Below, piece after piece: positions 1-60,990 of a DNA stretch of 64,000 nt (its first letter is position 1; each line of letters begins with the position of its first letter). The DNA is taken from NCBI GenBank assembly GCA_951406725.2, contig OX597823.1, forward strand, positions 106,950,001-107,014,000, given 5' to 3'. Both the position numbers and the translations under genes were made by a program. The notes under the pieces were generated by a model. It ran no database searches. It had not been told where the DNA came from and saw only the letters and a program-made list of their open reading frames with translations. Origin of the DNA: Octopus vulgaris. Its lineage: Eukaryota.

Positions 1-95
1 TTTAAATTGATGTAATAATTGCATTATTCAATTAAATCGAGCTGCTTGAAACGGTCATACTGCATTATCTTTGGATGTCCTTGTTGCTTATTTTG

Positions 96-157
<62 letters not shown>

Positions 158-166
<9 letters not shown>

Positions 167-505
167 CAATGTACATTGAAACACATAAGGAATCCAATCG
201 TGGGATTCAACACGCTAGAAAGAACAGCTAGGTTCTATAACCACAAAATTAGGGATAAAATTCAACAGGAACGAAATGAAAAAATAAAAACATTTTACCA
301 TCTAGTTTCCTGGACCAATTGGTTTCTGATTTTAGTTTAGCAAGCAAATACCATTTACCCGCTAGGTGAAATATTTCTCAACAGGTACACCTTAGATTAA
401 ATATAAAAACACGAGGTGATCAACTATGTACCTCTTGTTTATACATCCTAATTTTTTCGAAATCTACGGATTCCTTATTTGTTTAGATGTACACTGTATT
501 TTATA
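158..505. mobile_element. MITE-like element or inverted repeat with ~38-bp imperfect arms
   Basis: 158-195 TATAAAATACAATGTACATTGAAACACATAAGGAATCC is the reverse complement (4 mismatches) of 468-505. The inner ends read TA-CA(A/G)TG...CACTG-TA, as in Tc1-type MITEs. Confidence 0.6.
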
Positions 506-628
506 ACTAGTACATAGTCTCTGGACTAAATTTTTACACGTTAGGCCACTTGAAATGGTAATTTCTATAAATTTCCATTTCCCTTTGATATGATTAAGTA
601 TATATATATATATATCACTTATATCTCA

Positions 629-699
629 CGTATTAATCGCTGAAGAGGGGAAAATTCTTATGAATTAACCCCGAAATTGGGACCAATACGGTAATAACG
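629..699 (+). ncRNA. Type I hammerhead ribozyme, copy 1
   Basis: ATCG-CTGAAGA(640-646)-GGGG..AATTC TTAT GAATT..CCCC-GAAA-TTGG GA CCAA-TA-CGGT. Predicted cleavage after 688. Stem I has one extra mismatch compared with copy 2. Confidence 0.75.
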
Positions 700-1084
700 G
701 ATTTTTTAGAAATTTCTATCAGTTTATTTCGAGACGCATGAATTATAATGGTTATTGACAATTTTTGTCTTTTTTTCGGCATATTTGGCATTAGAATTTT
801 TCTTGTAAATTATTTATAAATTTATCCTTTAAAGGTATTTTTTGATATGCTGGGCATTGATAAAAAATTTTTCCCGAAAAAAATTTTATCCTACATTAGT
901 TATAAATTGAATAGTGTTCACTTCCGGATTCTCTCACTCTGTGAAAGTTTCTAGTTCGAATCATACGTGTCTCGAGATGTGCCGAAGATTTTCTATTTTG
1001 GATATATTTGGGGTACTTAGGTCTGCTCGGGACTTAGTGCTTGCTTTTTCCATGGGTATGAGTAAGTATTTCACTTATATCTCA

Positions 1085-1155
1085 CGTATTTATCGCTGAA
1101 GAGGGGACAATTCTTATGAATTAACCCCGAAATTGGGACCAATACGGTAATAACG
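1085..1155 (+). ncRNA. Type I hammerhead ribozyme, copy 2 (canonical core)
   Basis: TTATCG-CTGAAGA(1096-1102)-GGGG..CCCC-GAAA-TTGG GA CCAA-TA-CGGTAA. Stem I has 6 bp, extended by CGT/ACG across a 2x2 internal loop. Predicted cleavage after 1144. Confidence 0.8.
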
Positions 1156-1279
1156 GATTGTTTAGAAATTTCTATCGGTTTGTTTCGAGACGCATAAATT
1201 ATAATGGTTATTAACAATTTTTGTCTTTTTTTCAGCATATTTGGCATTAGAATTTTTCTTTTGCCCTTATCTTGTAAAT

Positions 1280-1328
<49 letters not shown>

Positions 1329-1330
<2 letters not shown>

Positions 1331-1650
1331 CGGGAAGCTTTATGAAAATAAACAAAAGACGAAGGCAGGTGGAAAACAAACGAACAATTGTATTAGTATG
1401 GCGCTCAGGAAATATAAATAAAACAAGTCTTTAACGTTTCGAGCCTACGCTCTTCAACAGAAAGATACACAGAGAGAGAAAAACACAGAAAGAAGGAGAG
1501 AAAAAAATGCGTGCAGTAGCTAACGAATCAACATGGCGATCTGATTTCGGCCAGAGGTCAAAGATCAAACATGAGACGCGAGAGCGAAATAAGGGGAGAT
1601 AATAGGGTTGATAAAAGGGTTGAGGGACCAGCTAAAAGTGCGTGGGAGAT
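1329..1650 (-). mobile_element. Short Penelope-tail-like repeat with minimal hammerhead variant (1428-1465)
   Basis: Reverse complement reads TCTTT-CTGTTGA-A-GAGC GTAG GCTC-GAAA-CG-TT-AAAGA. Homologous to 3130-3320 and 60800-60995; sits next to (TA)n. Confidence 0.65.
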
Positions 1651-2486
1651 ATAAACATATATATATATATATAAACATATACATATATATGTGTAGGTGT
1701 TTGCGCGCGCGCGAATGTGTTATGCTGATAAACATATGTATCATATATACGAATATAATATTCATACAAAAGTGCACCTAATTAGTATTGAAATTAAATA
1801 AGAAGCAAGGTATACAATGTTGAAAAGTAGTCTACCCCAATTATGTAGTATTTCCACCATTGTCGTCGTTGCCATTGGAGACGTTCTTCACGTAACTGTT
1901 GCTCTTGTTTGTATTGTTTTTTTTACTTCTGTTTGTTAATATTTATTCTTATAAATTCTTGAAGCTAAGAATAACACCGAGAAAATTAACAATTAAGAGA
2001 AGGCAATAAAGCTCTAACAATGAAAGCATTCAAATTTAACTTACTGAGCAGCTGCCCTTGGCTTTATTGTATATTCTCAGCGCACACTGTTTCTGCACTG
2101 CACAATAGCATTGAAAAAACAATTATGTAAAAATCTGTAATGATATATAGATCGTCAAAACTGTTTGGAGTATGTCTCTTCATGTCGTTATTATTCAGTG
2201 AGTTTCGAATATAATGATGATATTAAACTAATGTGTAATTTCTTCCCAAATACTCGATTACGAAATATCAACGGGGATTCGGGATATACGTACATTGTGC
2301 GTGAAGAGACTTTGCGTGTGTGTGCGTGTGTGTGTGTATGTGTGTGTGTGTGTGTGTGTATGTGGGTGTGTGCCAATAAGAGAGTGTTTATTATTATTAA
2401 AATTATCTGATTTCTACTTTTTCAATGCTCCGAGGGATACGTGTTTTTCATTCAACATATGTAAAAAGTTTTCAAAGCTATATAAC

Positions 2487-2636
<150 letters not shown>

Positions 2637-2839
2637 TACCTACACACATACATATATACATTTGTATGGGATTGGGTTTGTATGTATATATATATATATA
2701 TATATATATACATTAAGAACAATCTTAGAAATGGATGCGTGCGTTCCGTCATATTTTAAATTAATAAATAAATAAAACATATACATATATATATACATAT
2801 ATGTACGTACCTACCTCTACATGTATATATACATGCATA

Positions 2840-2980
2840 TATGGGTACAGGACACCAGAAAACGTCGAACACAATGAGAAACGAAAACATAAACACAAAA
2901 CCAAGGAACTGGACATTTTTTAAACAACGAAAACATAGAGTACAGGACATACAAAACAAGGAAAATTCCCCTTCTTCAGG
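2840..2980. mobile_element. Interspersed repeat fragment (unclassified)
   Basis: Internally repeated GTACAGGACA...AAACGAAAAC motifs between microsatellites. Confidence 0.35.
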
Positions 2981-3024
2981 TATGTATGTATATATGCATA
3001 TATTTTATTTATTTATTAATTTAT

Positions 3025-3064
<40 letters not shown>

Positions 3065-3074
3065 TATATGTACT

Positions 3075-3315
3075 TACTTTTTACCTCCCCTACTTTCCTT
3101 CTCCTGTCTGACCCCTCTGTCCGGCACTAGTCGCCATGATAGATCGTTATCCACTACACATATTTTTTTCTCTCCTTGTTTTTTCTGTGTACTTTTCTTT
3201 AGAAGAGCGTAGGCTCGAAACGTAAAAGAAGTTTTCTATTCCCGAGCGTTATACTAATACATCTGTTTGTTTTGTACACCACCTGTCTTCGTCTTTTGTT
3301 TTTTTCGTAAACTTT

Positions 3316-3320
<5 letters not shown>
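3075..3320 (+). mobile_element. Short Penelope-tail-like repeat with degenerate hammerhead (3192-3228)
   Basis: CTTTT-CTTTAGA-A-GAGC GTAG GCTC-GAAA-CG-TA-AAAG. Same family as 1329-1650; ends in (TA)n. Confidence 0.6.
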
Positions 3321-3364
<44 letters not shown>

Positions 3365-3549
3365 TGTATTTCGAAAATACATACACACGCTCATACACTC
3401 ACACACACATACACACACTCATACACACACTCACACACACACATATGAGTATAGCAGAATTTGCAAAGGGTAAGAAATCTAATGAACCAGTTTATTGTAT
3501 TTTCGGACAAACTAGAACTCTCGAAACTTCTCCAACACTCACCCTTCTA

Positions 3550-3707
3550 CAGTAGCTGTGTGGTAAGTAGCTTGCTTATCAACCACACGATTCCAGGTTC
3601 AGTCCCACTGCGTGGCATTTCGGGCAAGTGTCTTCTACTATAGTCTCGGGCCGACCAAAGCCTTGTGAGTAGATTTGGCAGACGGGAACTGAAAGAAGCC
3701 TGTTGTA

Positions 3708-3710
<3 letters not shown>
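3550..3710 (+). mobile_element. tRNA-derived SINE, family A (head)
   Basis: GCTGTGTGGTAAG...GGTTCAGTCCC A/B-box-like head. Five copies in the window. Confidence 0.85.
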
Positions 3711-3761
<51 letters not shown>

Positions 3762-3765
<4 letters not shown>

Positions 3766-4061
3766 CGTGATCGACCAGGCTATCAGATGTTGCTACACAT
3801 CGCTGGTCACAATGCGCTTCGCATTGTTTTAGCCTTCAAATGATGCCACTCCGCTGGCGAAGAGAGCAGGCCAACAGAAGAAAGAGTGAGAGAATGTTGT
3901 GGCGAAAGAGTACAGCAGGGATCGCCACCATCCCCTGCTGGAGCCTTGTGGAGCTTTAGGTGTTTTTGCTCAATAAACACTCACAACGCCTGGTCTGGGT
4001 ATCGAAACCGCGATCCTACGACCGCGAGTCCGCTGCCTTAACGACTGGGCCATTGCGCCTC

Positions 4062-4063
<2 letters not shown>
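3762..4063 (-). mobile_element. tRNA-derived SINE, family B
   Basis: Reverse-complement head GGAGGCGCAATGGCCCAGT...GGTTTCGATACC. Homologous to 5490-5798 and 52718-52878. Confidence 0.85.
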
Positions 4064-4132
<69 letters not shown>

Positions 4133-4361
4133 TATATTACCTACATACATATACATACATATACATACATTCATACATGTTTCTGCGTGCTATGTTAATG
4201 TCTCTGTGTGCACGCGCACGTGTGCATATTTTATTTTTATCTTTATTTATTCTCTTGATATGCTTAATTGATTGCATCGCCGCGCCTCCCGCCTTCTCGA
4301 AACTATTGGAATGTAGAAATTTGTATAATATACTTTATCTAAGAGCAATAACATCATATTT

Positions 4362-4438
<77 letters not shown>

Positions 4439-4495
4439 TGTAGTAGTAGTAGTAGTAGTAGTAGTAGTTGTAGTAGTAGTAGTAGTCGTCGTCGT
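4362..4495. repeat. (TAG)n microsatellite
   Basis: Seen directly. Confidence 0.95.
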
Positions 4496-4635
4496 TGATG
4501 TTGCAAATACTAACACACACATACACTCTTATACACGATCATTTACATACATATTCACTCACACAGTAACACTCATAGACTCACACACTCTGCTGTATTC
4601 AATGCCCCACCCCATGCACACAATGTGTCGTAATA

Positions 4636-4689
<54 letters not shown>

Positions 4690-4849
4690 TATATATAAAG
4701 CTATGAAGTTATCTTTTTCCAGATGTGCGTATGTATGCATATATAAAGAGATATATCTATCTATTTATATATATATATATGCGTGTGCGCATGTGTGCGT
4801 GTGTTTGTATGTATGCAGTGGTGTGTATGTATGTATGCAGTGGTGTGTA

Positions 4850-4895
<46 letters not shown>

Positions 4896-5026
4896 ATGAC
4901 TATCGTCTGCATTTATGGCTGTTACATGCACTGACATATGGATGCGGACATTCACAGACAGACGCACGCATACACAAATAATTGGAGTCGATAGTTACAT
5001 AAATGAAAAAAATCAATACACACACA

Positions 5027-15075: not shown

Positions 15076-15766
15076 ATAGTAAAGCAAATAAAAGGGTTAG
15101 CAGCAGGCTGCTTCGCCTCATACCGAAGGAATTAGAAATGGCAGTCAAAGACTGTTTTTTCCATTTTCTGTAAGTGGAGATTCCAAAAACGAAGGCCCGT
15201 GCGGCTCACATACACAAAACCGGAGTAGCAAATAGACGCAAACAGTCACTTACCGTTAATAACGAACATGTTTCTGGATCACAAACTCAGAAAATAGTTT
15301 GATTTCCTTCTTCGGCGCTATATTCGATAGATTTACCAAATGCCACAGGCCCTCACTTCTGACCCAGCGACATCAGATAGTGGGGGAAGTGTGCAGATGT
15401 TAAAACTAAGTAATGACTGGGAACGTAAATTCTCCCTCCAAAATTCTGCCATGCGCGCCTTCTGGGTAATCGTAATGGAATAAGGGATCCACATGGTAAT
15501 GCAATAAAAATAGTAAATAATTTTTCTGTGGTTTTTCATGTAACCAACAATTATTTACCGGTAAATTTCGGTATGTAAATACGACAAATTCATCGTCAGG
15601 AACTTTGTAAGGTTCAGTATATAGTAAAGCAAATAAAAGGGTTAGCAGCAGGCTGCTTCGCCTCATACCGAAGGAATTAGAAATGGCAGTCAAAGACTGT
15701 TTTTTCCGTTTACTGTAAGTGGAGATTCCCAAAACGAAGGCCCGTGCGACTCACATACACAAAACC
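15076..15766 (-). mobile_element. Penelope pLTR/retrozyme-like partial tandem (unit 545 bp) with hammerhead motifs
   Basis: Near-identical direct repeats 15076-15221 and 15621-15766, flanked by (TA)n. Minus-strand hammerhead motifs at 15259-15321 and ~15545-15605. Confidence 0.7.
15259..15321 (-). ncRNA. Minimal type I hammerhead variant (U4C)
   Basis: Reverse complement reads ATAGCG-CCGAAGA-AGGA..CAAACT/AGTTTG..TCCA-GAAA-CATG-TT-CGTTAT. 6-bp stem I; palindromic AACATGTT stem III. Confidence 0.6.
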
Positions 15767-18042: not shown

Positions 18043-19765
18043 ATATGTTTCTTTATTAGCCACACAGGGTTGAACACAGAGGGGACAAATTACAAAGTAG
18101 AGCTTTTCTTTTAGGGGAGAAAACAAAAGGTTTTCGATCAAAAGGGATCGTAAAAAACAAAACGATCAATAGGAATCGTGTATCACAGAAATGTCATGAT
18201 GTAAAGTGTAAAGGGGGGAGCAGATCGGGTTTATCTGTGGAAAGAAAAGCCGACGGAAAAGACGACGGTTACCTCGGTCAGTAATGTCACATGTTAAAAC
18301 ATATATTTGCAAGTAAGTACTCTCTATTTAAAATTTTTCCGGGTTCATAGGATCATGCTCAAGGTGGCTTCGTCAGTCATACGTGCCATCCTTGCTACAA
18401 TCACCCATCTTAATTGAAACATTCGCTAGACAAAACTTGCCTCTCTACTCTCACTTTCCTTTTCAAGTGATACTTGAAGAAGTTGATGAGAGATTGACCA
18501 GAGAGGAAAGTGTTTGTCTCTAATCCTTTCAGACGCGTCCTCCAGATACATTCTTTCGCCATAGCGAAAGGATGATGAAAATATCTCTTCCTTCCCGTTT
18601 GAAGGAAGGAGGCGTGACAATACTGACGATAGACTCGGCTGATAAACCGACTCGTCCCACACGTGACAGCAGTCGTTCGACATAAGTCCACAGGTCGGAG
18701 ATTGTTGGACACAGCCCGATTGCGTGCAGAACGGTTTCGTCGCTCTGCCCGCATCTCGGGCAGGTCGGCCCCGTGTTTCTCGAGCCGTGTCTGTAGAGAT
18801 TATCCCGAACGGGTAGCGCTTCTAGGTAGCACTGCCAGGCCAGGGATCTCTGGAAGTTGTCCATAGGTCCCGGCCCGAAAGTCGTCTTGAACAGGTGGGT
18901 CAGGTATTCCTTGTCGATGCCCAAGTTCGCCCCGAGATCGTCGTCGTACCTCTCTTCTTCCACTAATCCCCTATAGAGTGCTTTTGTTGTGTTGAAGTCA
19001 CTCAAGGTCGACCCGGAACGGCATAGTTGTTTGAGATCAACGTGCCACTCGTGGTGCCATTCCCCTTCCTTGGCCTCTTTTTGATCCACGACTGGAGTTC
19101 GTTCATAGAGACGAGCTGCGGGAGGGCGTGCCTCACAAACGGCAACCACACCTGTTCATCGTCGTCTACATAGAGCCGGAGATGTCGCAGTCTCGGCGCG
19201 TGTCTGCGCATCGTCAACCACGGCATGCCCAGCCCTCCTTTTAACGGGTGTGGACAGCAAATGGATCGCCTGACCATCGGGACGCATCCTTTCCACAAGA
19301 AGCGGAAGAGAATGCATTCTAGTTTGGTGATGGTAGGGTCGGGACAAGGTACGACGGTCGGGTGGTAGTTGATGACGGACGCGATATACGTGTTCGCACC
19401 TCTGCCCGACCTTTTAGGGACAGTTTCCTCTCGGCCCATTGCCGTGCGGAAGTGACCACCCTACTCGTTATCTCGTTCCAGTTCTTCTCCATTTGGAGGT
19501 CTGGACCGAACCAGACCCCGAGCATCTCGACTGGACCGTCGTCCAGCTTCCCACGGCGTCCACGGCGCTGGTGGACGGCATGGACTTCTTCTCCAGTTGC
19601 CGAGCCGCAAGCCCACTGACTTTTCCTGGTTGATTTTCGCTCCTGTCGCCGCTTCGTAGTCTTTCAGTGTCTCGCCGACCAGCTCGATGTGCTCGTGACT
19701 AGACACTATGACGTTGACGTCGTCCGCGGAAGACGGGACCGAAACCAGCCGCTCTGAGGACAACC
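18043..19765 (-). mobile_element. 5'-truncated, frameshifted Tx1/L1-clade LINE (RT C-terminus, zf-RVT, 3' UTR)
   Basis: Overlapping ORFs contain SADDV (YADD-like), ATGAKINQEKS, LSLKGRAEV, FRFLWKG..GGLGMP and CPRC..ETVLHAIGLC. AATAAA is followed by a (TATC)n tail. Confidence 0.9.
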
Positions 19766-19951
19766 TCCAAGTATCGATTGTCTACCCTATCGAAAGCTTT
19801 CGATTGATCCAAATTGATCAGGGCCCCAACCATGCCAGGTTCCTTCTTTTTTCGACTTCACCATCATTATAATTACAAACATTGATTTCCACTATTATTT
19901 CTAACCGCTGCTACAGCACCACCTTCTCACACTACTACTACAACAACAACA

Positions 19952-24246: not shown

Positions 24247-25560
24247 TCACATCTTTCAACTTATCCTCGATACCTACAACATCTATTCGCACTATCTAAG
24301 CTGCTGGCACAAAATACGGAAGTCAACAAAATGTTCTGAAACTGTCTTTATCTTGAAACCTACTCGAAAACTTCACCGCCATATGCAGGTGGAGCTGATG
24401 AAAATATGTAATTATTCAATGTTTCGCAATTTGAGAAAATTGTCATTCGCCTTTTGACACTTGACAGCCTTAATAGCTTGAGAAGATTATAATCCCCATA
24501 TAAGTCAGAATCAGTGCGTGTCTCGAGAAGTGTTACTAAGACTTTTTACAAATCGCAGATGACTTATTTGCTGGATGGATCCAGGGAAAAAACATCGCGT
24601 CTGGGATATCGATTCTAGATAGTTCCTGATGCAGTTGTCAAGACAACTTCAGAATTGAAAGCAATTGCTTCTATGCTTCATATTTAAGTCTGCAGATATT
24701 TCTGGAAAAGAAATATATGCAACATCTTGCAAATACAAGTACTTAAGACACACAATAATGGTGGCATTAAAAGCAATGGATCTGTTATATAATTCCAATA
24801 TCAAGCTGAGATTGTGATAATTAAGTGAATGATATCCAAATATTATTTTTTAAAGGGTGCAGTGTTGGTTAAAGAACAGACAATGAAAAAGCCAGACAAT
24901 GAACTCATCTCGTGCTTTGTAGCTTGAAATGGTCCCGTTCTCAGATGACTATCCGAGCGTATGTTTCATTTGTTGATGAAATTCTTAGTCAGTGAAAAAT
25001 CCAGCTGTTTGAGGTAATTTCTGGTAGGAGAGTTGTGCAAGTGTTTTGGCAGCAAAAATCTCGTTGATTCCTAAACACTGAGAAAGTTCAACTAGTTGTG
25101 TTTTATGACACCCAACTTGTGTGACAACAATCTCAGCTTCTGAGCATCGTCAATATTTGTGAATTTTATCTTCGAAGAGACCTTTACATTTTTTGGAATT
25201 AGTGTCAAAATTGACTCTTTCGAGAGAATCATACTAAAACCACTGGATTCTTCTTCAGTCACATTTGGTTCACACTCTTTGCCTTTACCCAAATATCCTT
25301 TATCCTACTTCCATGCATAGTCCAATTAGGTTTTGTACTCAGCTGACGGTATAAATATATTCAGAAAATCAATGAACTTTGATACTAATTCACTAATTGA
25401 TTTTTACTAATTAAAAAGAGTGATTAACTATTACTTTCCAAAAGTCAGGTTACCACAATTTTTTGTTTATATAGCATTACTACAAATCATGATTACATGA
25501 AATTTAAATAGTTAACGGGTTTTCCGACATTGCAAATATTAGCATGCCCTGAGATATTTT
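23705..25560 (-). mobile_element. Highly decayed hAT (Charlie-like) transposon relic
   Basis: End-like CAATGATACTTAAACGGTGTGCGGC at 23705. Minus-strand remnants KFTNIDDAQKL (DESTD..AQL-like) and NQHC (THC-like). Confidence 0.45.
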
Positions 25561-48625: not shown

Positions 48626-49870
48626 CAGGGTGGGGAAGCAAAATTTACAATATTTTGAGGCAGGGATTGAAAGACAGTGTATGACCAATTTGTTTATTGA
48701 AAGTCATGAGAATTTATTTGCCACAAGAAAATTTACATAATAGAAAATATTTTTATTCTATGTGTCCTCCTTCTTTCTCAATAACTTCCTTCCCACGCTT
48801 CCTGAAACTTGCACAGGCGTTCCTCAAATATTCGAGAGACAACTTCTCCCATTCTTCTGTAATAGTATCTTTAAGAGAGTCGACATTACAGTGTGATGTT
48901 CTAGTGGTAGCATGTTCTAAAACGCCCCAAATAGCATAATCCAGAGAGTTTAGATCTGGGCTAGAAGGCGGCCATAAACATGATTCCAAAGAATTACTAA
49001 AGTTGGATTTGCAGAAATCTTGTATTTTTCTGGCTGTGTGGGCTGGAGCACCATCCTGTGTCCATACATAATTACCATCTGAGTAGTTTGCTTTAAGCCA
49101 TGGCAATACCTGGTATCTCAGAGTCTTGTAGTAAGTATTAACATTGATCTTTCCATCAGCTTTGCAGAATTTTATAGGCATTTTCTTTCCATCGGAGGCC
49201 ACAACACCAAAATCCATAACTTGAGCAGGATCTCTTGTTTTGAATGTCCCCTTAACCTCAGCTGTTGATTTTGCAATAAATCTGTCATTTCTGCTGTTCA
49301 GAAAGAGCATCGACAGTGAATAGCTTTTCATCTGAATTATTACTTGAACCAAGTAATAATTTTCTTGCATCTTTCCAATCTCTTTTCCTTCATAGCTGTT
49401 GTCAACAAGTGTTTTGGTGTTCTTGTGTAAGATTTTAACCTCAAATCATATTTTATAGCATTTCTAATGGTCTTGTTGTCTACCTCAAGTTCAATTGCCA
49501 TTTTTCTTATGGATTTGGTTGAATCCTTTAAGATTTTGGATTTGAGAGCTTAAAAGCTTTGGTACGTTTTTTGCTGATTCCTCCACTTCCAGACTTCCTC
49601 GTAATAGTTTTGCTCATAGTCATTCTATTCTTTACATTATAAATAGTCTTTATGGACACTCCAACTATTTTTGAAATCTCCTTTGGTGTGATGAGTGCAT
49701 TCAGCAAATCACACACTCTTTGACGTTTGCTTTCCTGATTACTCATATGGCAAAGTTTCTGAAAAGGTAAGGATAACAGTGTAAGGTATGATTATGACAT
49801 TAATATATGCTAGGTTTCAAAACAACTGACTTAGTGTCTGCTGAGAAAAAACAACTTATAACAGACTTTT
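48626..49870 (-). mobile_element. Tc1/mariner DD37D (maT-like) transposon, frameshifted transposase 48753-49746
   Basis: QDGAPAH...WPPSSPDLNSLDY has 37 residues between the last two Asp. N-terminal HTH in ORF 49528-49746. One TIR TA|CAGGGTGGGG; the other is not seen. Confidence 0.88.
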
Positions 49871-50487: not shown

Positions 50488-50817
50488 CATGTGTGTGTGT
50501 GTGTGTGAAGGCGCGTGGCCTGGCGGTTATAGCATGAGGTTCACGAGCATACGGTACCCAACCCGGATGGCACATTTGTGCATTTAGCAGGTTCCCTCAG
50601 TAAACGCTACTTCAGGCTACTCAGCTAAAGATAGTGCTGCTGCTGATCCCGCTCTCCTCCAGCTATCACATTCCTGCTGTTCTACAAATTCAATCGTAAG
50701 AAATCGAAAGGGTATCTATATCTGCTCACGAGTACATATGCACCTAAAAATAAACTAACTAAAGCGTGATACATGCTACTAGGTCTTGCACGCTTGAGAA
50801 TCACAGCTAAGATATAT

Positions 50818-50850
<33 letters not shown>

Positions 50851-50854
50851 CACA

Positions 50855-52520
50855 CCAAGCTTTGATGTAGTAAGCCTTTACACTAATATCTCACATGATT
50901 TAGGAATAAAGGCGATCAAATACTGGTTAGATAAACAGAGAGAAGCAATTCCCAACGGATTCACAGTGATATTTATATTAGACTCAGTCAGACTTATTCT
51001 GGAAAACAACACTTTCCAAATTAAAGGCACGGCTATGGGAACGAAGTTTGCTCCCGTTTATGCGAACTTGGTGATGGGATACTTAGAACAAATTCTCTAC
51101 CAGGAAACAGAGGAAAGATACAGCACAGAATTTAGGAAGTATATTGTAAAAGTATGGATGAGATACCTCGACGATTGCTTCATAATCTGGGCAAAATATC
51201 AAAACACTGTGGAAGAATTCAACATCCTCCTGAACAACCTACACCCATCCATCCAATTTACAAAGGAGATAATTAGTACCAAATTACCATTCCTAGATAT
51301 AATGGAGATTAAAAAGAACACCGCCATTACCACAGATATATATTATAAACTCACAGATACACACCAATATCTGAATTTTAAATCGTGCCATCCACCGCAT
51401 ACAAAACGTAACACCCCATTCTGTTTAGCCAGCAGTATCTGTACCATTGTAGAGGATCTAAAGACCAGAAATCAGCGCCTGATGGACTGAAAGAACTTCT
51501 GCTCAAGTAAAAATACCCGTCACTACTTATAGAAAATGGTATTCAGCGGGCTTTGAAGATATCCATAGAACAACTGAGGACACCACAAAGAAGAGATAAC
51601 AAGAACAAATCATACCATTTATAGTGACACAGAATCCATGCCACCAGAACATCTTCAATATCGCTAAAGCAAACCTACCAATCATTGCACAAAGTAAGGA
51701 ATTGAGAAATATCATTACAGATCAAACTTTAACTCTCAGTAAGAGACAACCTAAAAGCTTGAAAAAAGTTATTAACAAAGGCAAGGTTTCACCTTAGCAA
51801 CAAAGATCAACCATTCACCGTGTCCTAAATGCAATGATAGCCGATGCGGTACATAGCAATTAATTCATACCGGCCCATATATGAACACAAAAACAGGGAA
51901 AATATTCACAAACGCGAACATGAACTGCAAAAACAGAAATTTAATCTACTGCATCAAATTCCCAAATTGTGAAGAACTGTACGTTGGCCAGACAGGTAAT
52001 GCACTATCAGAACGATCGCGTGTGCATCGACAACAAAATAAAAATCCAGAAGTCCGCCAAATACCACTGAGTAACCATCTGGCAACATGTGGTCGGAAAA
52101 TTTTTGTGATATTTCCATTTCATAAACTTTACAACCTGAATGAAATTGAGAGAAAACTGAGAGAAAAGGACTTTATTAAGAAATTCAAACCTAAGCTTAA
52201 CAAACAATGATTAAATTAATCTTATTTGGGGTTTAAAAATCTTATCCCTATAACTAAAACACAAAAAAATCTCTAAAAAGTACTGCTGTCATCATCTCTA
52301 AAAATAGCTAAACAACTACTACTGCTGTCCACAGGAACGTATATAAAGGACAAAAGACAGCCAGTCAACTACAGTTGAAACACTCCTGTCACAACCTGGG
52401 ACCTTGAAGACTGCTTAAATGCAAGAAAGTATACTAGTCCCTTAATATTTTATATTCAATATTTCATCAATTCAATAAGACAATCATACTTCATTTCATT
52501 TTATTATATATACTATACTC
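50855..52520 (+). mobile_element. 5'-truncated Penelope-like element (RT + GIY-YIG endonuclease, disrupted)
   Basis: SFDVVSLYTNI, KGTAMG, RYLDD, PFLD, TDIYYK..TDTHQYL..SCHP. GIY-YIG NLIYCI..C..LYVGQTG..R..H. Stop at 52210; several stops/frameshifts. Confidence 0.93.
52398..52441 (+). ncRNA. Degenerate minimal hammerhead in the Penelope 3' pLTR
   Basis: GGGAC-CTTGAAGA-CTGC TTAAAT GCAA-GAAA-GTATAC-TA-GTCCC. 5-bp stem I; palindromic AGTATACT. Confidence 0.6.
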
Positions 52521-52584
52521 TACATTAATATTAAAAGAATATATATAAAATATAAAAATTCTTGGAATTCCTTTGAATAATATA

Positions 52585-57714: not shown

Positions 57715-58885
57715 CTGATTATCTATGACTTCCTTCCATTTATTTACAAGCTTTTTAATCCCATCAATGTAAAACTCATTTGGTTTCAAAGCGAAGAGCT
57801 CTGAAATGTCAGTTTCGACCTCTTCCTGGCTTGCGAAAGTTATGTCCCCCAAATGATTCTGTAAATTACGAAACAAATGGTAGTCTGAAAGAGCAAGGTC
57901 GAGAGAATAAGGTAGATGAGGAACTTTTTTTCCAACCAAGCTCTTCGATCTTCTGTGATGTGACCTTTGCAGTGTGAGATCGTTCATTGTCTTGATGAAA
58001 CATCACTCCTTTTCGATTCACTAAAGCGGGTCTTTTTTTCTTCAAAGCTTGGTTCAAATGCTCTAATTGCTGGCAGTAGACTTGAGTATTGATTGTTGTA
58101 TTAAGTGGTAAGAATTCAAAGTGAATTTCTCCTATGCAATCCCACCAGATAGAGAGAAGAACCTTTTTTACATGAAGTTCCCTTCTTGGTTGTGGTTGAG
58201 CTTTTTCCCTTTTACCAAGCCATTGTTTACGACGTTTAACATTTCGATAGAAGATCCATTTTTCGTCACCAGTCGTAAGTCTATCCAAAAAGGGTGAAAT
58301 GAGTTCGTGAGACTGGAGAAGAGCAGATGTCACCTCGGGATTTGCGGTTGCTTTCGGACAATTCATGAGGCACCCATTTTCCAAGCTTAGGAACCTTTCC
58401 AAGTTGTTGAAGATGACGATGAACAGTTGTATGGTTTGAATTAAGCTTTATTGCCAATTCTTCAACTGATAAGGCAGGGTTTTCTTCATGTAATACCCCA
58501 AGGAGCTTAACATCAAACTCAATTGGACGTCCTGTTCGATCTTCATCTTCTGAATTTTGCAAACGAACTTCTGCAAGTTCTTTCATTCAAGCATTCTTTC
58601 CCATAAACTGAGTGTATGTTTCGAGTCGCTTCTGCTGCAGAGTTTCCTTTTTTGTAATCATAAAGCATTATATGCCTTAAATGCTCTTTGGATACCTCCA
58701 TGTTAGAAAGAGTTTTACTCAAAGAAATTTTAATTCTATTATTCTGTAAAATAATATTTAATTAGTTTAAATGTACACAAATGCATAAAAATAATTTTTA
58801 ATTCCATTAGACATTCTAAAATACTATTAAATTTCATTCAATTTTAAAAACGGTAAAATCGGACAGAACTTATGGGATGACCTGA
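57715..58885 (-). mobile_element. Defective mariner (DD34D), second lineage; 3' TIR missing
   Basis: WVPHELS, TGDEKW, HQDNERSH and YSLDLALSDYHLF motifs. 5' TIR TA|TCAGGTCATCCCATAAGTTC at 58885. ATG at 58701. Confidence 0.92.
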
Positions 58886-59867: not shown

Positions 59868-60425
<558 letters not shown>

Positions 60426-60801: not shown

Positions 60802-60990
60802 GGAGATGTTTACGAAAAAAACAAAAGACGAAGACAGGTGGTGTACAAAACAAACAGATGTATTAGCATAACGCTCAGGAATAGAAAAAGCCTTTTATGT
60901 TTCGAGCCTACGCTCTTCTACAGAAAGGAACACAGAAAAAACAAGGAGAGAAACAAGGAGAGTAAAAATATGTGTAGTGGCTAACGATCT

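Follow-up and report, generated by a model that had tools for sequence, protein, structure and literature searches.

Animal retrozymes of the non-LTR type have been described from coral, Mytilus (350-390 bp) and axolotl (330/350 bp), among others (main account of Cervera and de la Pena 2020, PMC7229834). Penelope elements were proposed as their helpers, both there and by Li, Clavereau and Pollet 2026 (10.64898/2026.07.22.740005). So far, copying by Penelope enzymes has been argued from shared ribozymes, the tandem layout, co-occurrence and similarity to Penelope terminal repeats (pLTRs), and the main accounts of both studies call the mechanism open.

Neptune-type Penelope elements form partial tandems and inverted, 5′-truncated arms, carry a tail at one end and target (TA)n (passages of PMC8557442, PMC11167929, and PMC4209133). 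They have two internal reverse transcriptase (RT) start sites and a type I hammerhead in their repeat (passages of PMC11167929 and of Cervera and de la Pena 2014, PMC4209133). The “Penelope tail” is described as an extension of 30-40 bp at one end only (Craig et al., PMC8557442, section cited), and in vitro it is the sequence between the two internal RT start sites (Frangieh et al., PMC11167929, section cited). Non-autonomous elements of Chlamys such as MRC1 are non-coding Penelope derivatives with pLTRs and head-to-tail insertions; they share 3′ sequence with an autonomous partner, and most Chlamys elements are devoid of canonical hammerheads, according to the relevant passages of PMC8557442.

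Judged by its genomic sequence, the Octopus vulgaris element described here falls under the definition of an animal non-LTR retrozyme and behaves like a non-autonomous Penelope element. With animal retrozymes it shares the non-coding, low-GC unit (32% here) with one canonical type I hammerhead, a core flanked by 6 bp of helix I and 4 bp of helix II, the head-to-tail arrangement of repeats, and coexistence with Penelope elements; no LTR, PBS or PPT was seen. The unit of 468-489 nt is longer than the 150-450 bp given in the main account of PMC7229834, but lies within the 51-972 bp of 10.64898/2026.07.22.740005. Helix III has 4 bp, in contrast to the 1-2 bp typical of animal retrozymes, and helix II extends beyond an internal loop. 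Animal retrozymes form long arrays, whereas the copies here are mostly partial tandems and head-to-head pairs. Expression and circles have been shown for animal retrozymes (PMC7229834, main account; 10.64898/2026.07.22.740005), while in this family circular RNA is a prediction.

All of the Neptune-type features listed above recur in the family. In contrast to Penelope elements, it has no ORF, its tail of ~90 nt exceeds the typical 30-40 nt (passages cited above) and the 32 nt of a local autonomous family, and its ribozyme is complete instead of minimal. The non-coding units, pLTR-like layout and head-to-tail insertions are reminiscent of the Chlamys elements; unlike these, the unit was not found to share sequence with an autonomous partner's terminal repeat: comparison with two local Penelope families described below, over the last 3.5 kb (4.27-kb family) and 2.2 kb (NepB) at the 3′ side, gave no significant similarity (best E 0.25). 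Two further classes were rejected. Plant LTR retrozymes have a type III hammerhead, LTRs with PBS/PPT and a 4-bp target duplication, whereas the hammerhead here is of type I (open stem I) and the copies are permuted tandems ending in (TA)n; autonomous Penelope-like elements have an RT + GIY-YIG ORF, which the unit does not contain.

The element class is therefore already known, and there is no pointer to a host function. The main accounts of PMC7229834 and 10.64898/2026.07.22.740005 yielded no description of a two-end insertion footprint, and literature searches on Penelope tails, non-autonomous hammerhead elements and octopus hammerheads gave no paper on this family among the matches listed.

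A partial tandem copy with two hammerhead ribozymes

The window, i.e. the whole stretch of 64,000 nt that was analysed, contains one 5′-truncated copy of 1.4 units of a dispersed non-coding hammerhead repeat. S and L denote the short and the long end site. The features are:

600..615, no strand: upstream (TA)n target microsatellite (basis: sequence)
629..699, plus strand: hammerhead 1, type I (basis: sequence, structural descriptor and fold), with stem I 5′ at 629-639, core CUGAAGA at 640-646, stem II at 647-672, GAAA at 673-676, stem III at 676-687, predicted cut after A688, stem I 3′ at 689-699
689..1144, plus strand: cut-to-cut monomer of 456 nt, 32% GC, non-coding
813..902, plus strand: 90-nt “tail”, flanked by S (after 812) and L (after 902)
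1054..1069, plus strand: block invariant among three subfamily representatives, just 5′ of the ribozyme
1085..1155, plus strand: hammerhead 2, core at 1096-1102, predicted cut after A1144
1145..1281, plus strand: second partial repeat, ending exactly at S, 137 nt past the cut (1144+137 = 1281)
1283..1329, no strand: downstream (AT)23 target microsatellite
1330..1648, minus strand: neighbour outside the element, 3′ end of NepB, with a minimal hammerhead-like motif at 1433-1460

The initial annotation had proposed tandem type I hammerheads that define a non-coding 456-nt monomer within (TA)n, and most of its structural claims hold. The direct repeat at offset 456 covers 611-804 and 1067-1260 (194 nt, 95% identical) and extends to ~210 nt if one 13-nt gap in copy 1 is allowed. 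The longest ATG ORF in the tandem monomer has 58 aa, and (TA)n flanks the copy at ~600-615 and 1283-1329. The length of 456 nt is correct for this copy but not for the family, which has a unit of ~468 nt: the window monomer carries a private 13-nt deletion near 801, and its loop III has 4 nt instead of 3. The 5′ end of the element is a truncation at unit position ~392. Only ~13 nt of the element precede the first ribozyme, so this locus could yield a monomer only if transcription read through from the flank. The NepB fragment at 1330-1648 lies tail-to-tail with the copy at a common microsatellite.

Both ribozymes have the complete core that had been proposed: CUGAAGA, a stem II with GGGG/CCCC (4 bp), an AA/AA internal loop and an inner AAUUC/GAAUU stem, GAAA, and the AUA triplet. 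The structural descriptor also places the predicted cuts where they had been expected, i.e. after 688 and 1144. Stem III is foldable as claimed, with 4 bp (AUUG/CAAU) and the loop GGAC; the UUGG/CCAA pairing given for it fails, since just 2 nt would remain for the loop if the additional G-C pair formed. Stem I has 6 uninterrupted bp in copy 2, followed by a 2x2 internal loop and a distal helix, and 4 bp with a bulged extension in copy 1. The 16-nt block at 1054-1069 holds GUAAGUA, which resembles a 5′ splice site; one or two such motifs lie a short distance 5′ of stem I. An intron end coincides with helix I in Drosophila Penelope, as a passage of PMC4209133 reports.

The descriptor has two matches in the window, which are the two copies. 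Under a strict threshold (I≥6, II≥4, III≥4), met by copy 2 only, 20 shuffled windows gave 0 matches. A loose core pattern is uninformative alone, with 22 matches in the window and 3 of 100 shuffles reaching that number. Detection by covariance models, which had been suggested, was negative: an Rfam scan of window positions 1-5000 at E≤1 returned no hammerhead family, just microsatellite-driven matches of miRNA type.

Other strings in the window resemble a hammerhead core (60335-60376, plus; 15546-15599, minus; 19754-19815, plus; 25196-25258, minus), and none passed the descriptor; the string at 60335 resembles the minimal motif typical of Penelope elements. The window also contains a LINE fragment with zf-RVT and two fragments of DDE/mariner-type transposases (18529-19460, 48753-49445 and 57866-58447, all minus).

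The lowest-energy fold is an inactive register in which 629-634 pair with 685-690 and cover the cut site. It is favoured over the active fold by 5.0 kcal/mol in copy 1 and by at most 7.2 kcal/mol in copy 2, where the constraint forced a 3-nt loop III; the energies leave out tertiary contacts. The cut-site-covering helix is predicted in subfamily A (subfamilies are described below), and an equivalent inactive fold is predicted in B and C despite the sequence change. For each of the 27 ribozymes folded with ViennaRNA, the inactive fold comes out ahead, by margins of 1 to 14.5 kcal/mol. The predicted competing helix might possibly serve as an off-switch protecting a circle.

The dispersed family and its conserved regions

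The family is dispersed and includes head-to-tail partial tandems; a core motif of 24 nt occurs at least 436 times without mismatch in the 2.8-Gb genome (control 0). A degenerate core pattern spanning three subfamilies has 456 exact matches (control 0), and both counts are lower bounds. In a DNA search of the genome, in which 40 of 3,753 candidates were scored, there were at least 40 main matches at 88-100%. Full monomers of subfamily A are mostly 464-473 nt long (22 of 29), with a consensus of 468 nt from which copies deviate by 1-8%. The sister subfamilies B (unit of ~488-489 nt) and C (477 nt), each judged from a single representative, are 83-84% identical to A. Across the family, the units of 468-489 nt have 32% GC and a longest ORF of 41-66 aa, without an RT/GIY-YIG ORF. 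Copies with two ribozymes are common, and the longest comprise up to ~2.6 units.

The stems covary: both partners differ in 8 of the 23 pairs, with stems I, II and III all represented. The alignment comprised 27 ribozymes chosen to represent variants from an extraction of 88, and 92.8% of its stem cells pair, compared with 23-44% in slid controls. Most compensatory changes sit on the single branch between A and B/C and therefore represent few independent events. The core is conserved across genomic copies as well. G5, A6, G8, A13 and A14 are invariant (81-91 subfamily A copies each), although GAAA lay within the motif used to pick some of these loci, and A9 is present in 83 of 83 subfamily A segments. 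The only core base with recurrent variants is position 7 (10 of 81 subfamily A copies), which is a free position. Selection has thus very probably acted on ribozyme function.

The best-conserved region across A, B and C is the segment between S and L, with 78 of 90 identical positions versus 146 of 176, 88 of 137, and 43 of 65 elsewhere. The 90-nt tail (813..902 in the window) is a candidate signal for the helper enzyme.

Insertion footprint and template

The footprint was determined in 178 loci, after removal of 12 duplicates and of 19 loci fetched for the autonomous element. They contain 298 segments, 127 of which end at L, 120 at S and 51 elsewhere, i.e. 247 of 298 end at S or L. In subfamily A, the two sites are 137 nt (S) and ~227 nt (L) past the cut. 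A TA run follows directly after 175 of the 247 S or L ends, versus 11 of the 51 other ends, and in most copies the junction matches the TA run by 1 nt at S and by 3 nt at L. The 95 head-to-head pairs comprise 66 of the type S+L, one L+L, one S+S, and 27 with an unclassified end; the 66 of 68 classifiable pairs compare with an expected fraction of 0.5 (p ~1e-17). Arms have a median length of 0.63 unit and reach ~2.6 units. Few arrays are long: in motif-selected loci, 32 of 203 segments span at least one unit, four at least 1.5 and one at least 2.

The 90-nt segment between S and L is a Penelope tail, because Penelope elements carry an extension at one end only (PMC8557442, passage cited above) and use two RT start sites (PMC11167929, passage cited above). 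Together with the copy number, the covarying stems and the finding that none of the 178 loci is the end of a coding element, this footprint supports the suggestion of the initial annotation that a retrozyme-like element could be mobilised by Penelope machinery, and we consider Penelope-type mobilisation of the family to be very probable.

Repeats within a copy differ by 4.4%, versus 7.0-7.3% between copies. The paired repeats of 34 elements share 176 non-consensus alleles, compared with 30±9 on random re-pairing (0/2000), and in 43 elements 37 variants are private to one element and present in both its repeats. At discordant sites of these 43 elements, 117 variants recur in the same repeat position and 120 crosswise, i.e. 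there is no inherited variation specific to the 5′ or the 3′ repeat. These values argue that both repeats are regenerated from one monomer sequence. Of 165 5′ ends, three (including one alignment split) are no more than 4 nt away from the cut, versus 33 in the flanking 80 nt, and copies that read through L have no indel scar at this site. Because ends do not pile up at the cut and L is unscarred, cut linear RNA is unlikely as the template.

The template footprint fits a ligated circle as well as uncut RNA copied with a jump guided by homology, and we lean slightly towards a circular instead of an uncut linear template. The competing explanation, namely that Penelope copied an uncut linear tandem transcript, that the upstream repeat arose by such a jump, and that the ribozyme is silent or trims read-through, is unlikely but has several points in its favour. 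It accounts equally well for the lack of stops at the cut site and for the identity within copies; inactive folds are predicted, arrays are short, and the 4.27-kb family also forms multi-unit tandems with just a minimal ribozyme motif. In vitro, an Anolis Penelope worked mainly on unprocessed RNA, and insertion was normal with ribozyme mutants (relevant passages of PMC11167929), and for Xenopus 1 of 9 dimers was cleaved in vitro (10.64898/2026.07.22.740005). Against it, subfamilies that differ by 12-17% have all retained a catalytically complete ribozyme, whose stem III has 4 bp and whose stems show compensatory changes. Furthermore, the monomer closed as a circle folds far better than shuffles (z of −2.3 for the window monomer, −5.6 for consensus A and −6.0 for a B monomer, 25 shuffles each; the consensus is given without a linear-fold comparator), and circles have been shown for comparable repeats of coral, mussel and axolotl (PMC7229834, main account).

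A generic 1144/689 junction would be no proof of a circle, because tandem genomic copies contain the identical junction. In four runs guessed to be RNA, contigs of the family extend across most of the unit; they show neither strand, ends nor circles. A promoter of the U-snRNA type was not found in A, B or C, for which the matrix, built from 17 U1/U2 upstream sites of the analysed genome, gave scores no better than those of shuffles (139-165 of 200 as high).

Candidate helper families and a proposed insertion cycle

A young Penelope family with a unit of 4,271 bp was traced from an RT fragment at window positions 50798-51490. The fragment belongs to an old (81%), broken copy of this family at 50798-52579 (plus), with a variant minimal hammerhead motif near 52395-52440; in the young family, C replaces U at position 4 of the hammerhead core. 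The unit has an RT + GIY-YIG frame of at least 775 aa, with a cysteine motif preceding the nuclease, and is inserted in (TA)n. By the cysteine-motif criterion given in a passage of PMC8557442, which is not tree-based, the family is Neptune-like. In each of the 12 inverted insertions inspected, of which 10 had been picked from opposite-strand pairs and two came from fetched loci, one arm ends at S and the other extends into a 32-nt tail. The distance from cut to S is 137 nt, identical to that of subfamily A and close to those of B (145 nt) and C (147 nt); it is 143 nt in an older helper relative (window 52436-52579), and in NepB the distance from cut to end is 104 nt.

The youngest copies of the 4.27-kb family (99.7% identical) postdate the retrozyme insertions (repeats 4.4% apart). 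As these helper copies are younger and sequence likeness is lacking, the helper is assigned by footprint alone, either to the 4.27-kb lineage or to an unsampled relative; other Neptune-like families, with proteins ~30-50% similar to that of the 4.27-kb family, exist in the genome. On balance, the chances are a little above even that the helper came from the lineage of the 4.27-kb family.

NepB is a second young Neptune-like family and is very abundant, with at least 4,668 matches to its ribozyme motif. One of its loci (L213) has an ORF of >1,000 aa, and its minimal ribozyme-like core has U at position 6. Older 3′ ends related to NepB (73-76%) lie in TA runs of the window at 3114-3318 (plus) and 60809-60987 (minus). 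NepB was considered as the helper too: it shares the (TA)n target, its abundance is high, one of its ends adjoins the window copy, and at L117:2224 an arm of subfamily C is joined head-to-head, without TA, to a 5′-truncated NepB arm. Nevertheless, NepB is a rather improbable helper, as 30 unselected loci have a single fixed 3′ end and no inverted arm, and its cut-to-end distance of 104 nt is at variance with those at S. The arms at L117 differ in apparent age (NepB ~0.6% from its family, the repeat ~10% from other C), which suggests separate events, and this is one junction in 178 loci; it was rejected as proof of a helper. The same applies to a junction with the 4.27-kb family at L071, made at a truncated 3′ end, which looks like a deletion between neighbours. 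These two mixed-template junctions (2 of 178 loci) were not used as support.

It is very improbable that the copies are truncated pLTRs of an unsampled autonomous Penelope element: most Penelope insertions are indeed 5′-truncated and keep one terminal repeat (10.64898/2026.07.22.740005), the family was sampled in part, and further Neptune-like families are present, but where a copy exceeds one unit it continues into a further stretch of the unit itself (34 and 43 elements; up to ~2.6 units), and in none of the 178 loci does a same-strand Penelope ORF lie immediately upstream. A same-strand ribozyme pair 2,934 bp apart at L111 was considered as an autonomous parent and turned out to be a local duplication. 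Between the duplicated repeat fragments at this locus (~2900-4600) lies a different repeat of ~350 bp, tandem and inverted, which sits in (TA)n and contains a variant string resembling the core.

In our preferred reading, the retrozyme copies were likely pasted into TA microsatellites by a Neptune-like Penelope enzyme that used a predicted circular RNA. A copy with two ribozymes would be transcribed, self-cleavage after AUA would release a monomer of ~468 nt, and ligation would close it to a circle. The helper endonuclease would then nick both strands of a (TA)n run, as the footprint suggests. RT would start inside the RNA, at S (+137) from one strand and at L (~+227) from the other, with the 1-3-nt match to the TA run that is seen at the junctions. 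The arms would be copied for variable distances past the ribozyme junction, in line with the observed ends, which do not pile up there. The products would be single arms, partial tandems like the window copy, or head-to-head S+L pairs.

A more specific version of this cycle is tentative and has, in our opinion, a less than even chance of being correct: the ligated hammerhead circle itself would be the direct substrate of a Neptune-type Penelope enzyme, TA would be nicked on both strands and the two fixed internal starts used at once, S would lie ~137-147 nt from the junction in the parasite as well as in the helper, and the 90-nt tail would be the cis signal.

To the arguments available so far for Penelope copying of animal retrozymes, the family adds a genomic footprint, i.e. 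paired S and L ends, which it has in common with a young autonomous element with intact ORFs in the same genome. This footprint makes the insertion mechanism testable in vitro with one protein, an RNA of ~470 nt, two predicted starts, and the comparison of circle and linear RNA. If the circle is indeed the substrate, the animal retrozyme cycle would gain the insertion step that it has been missing.
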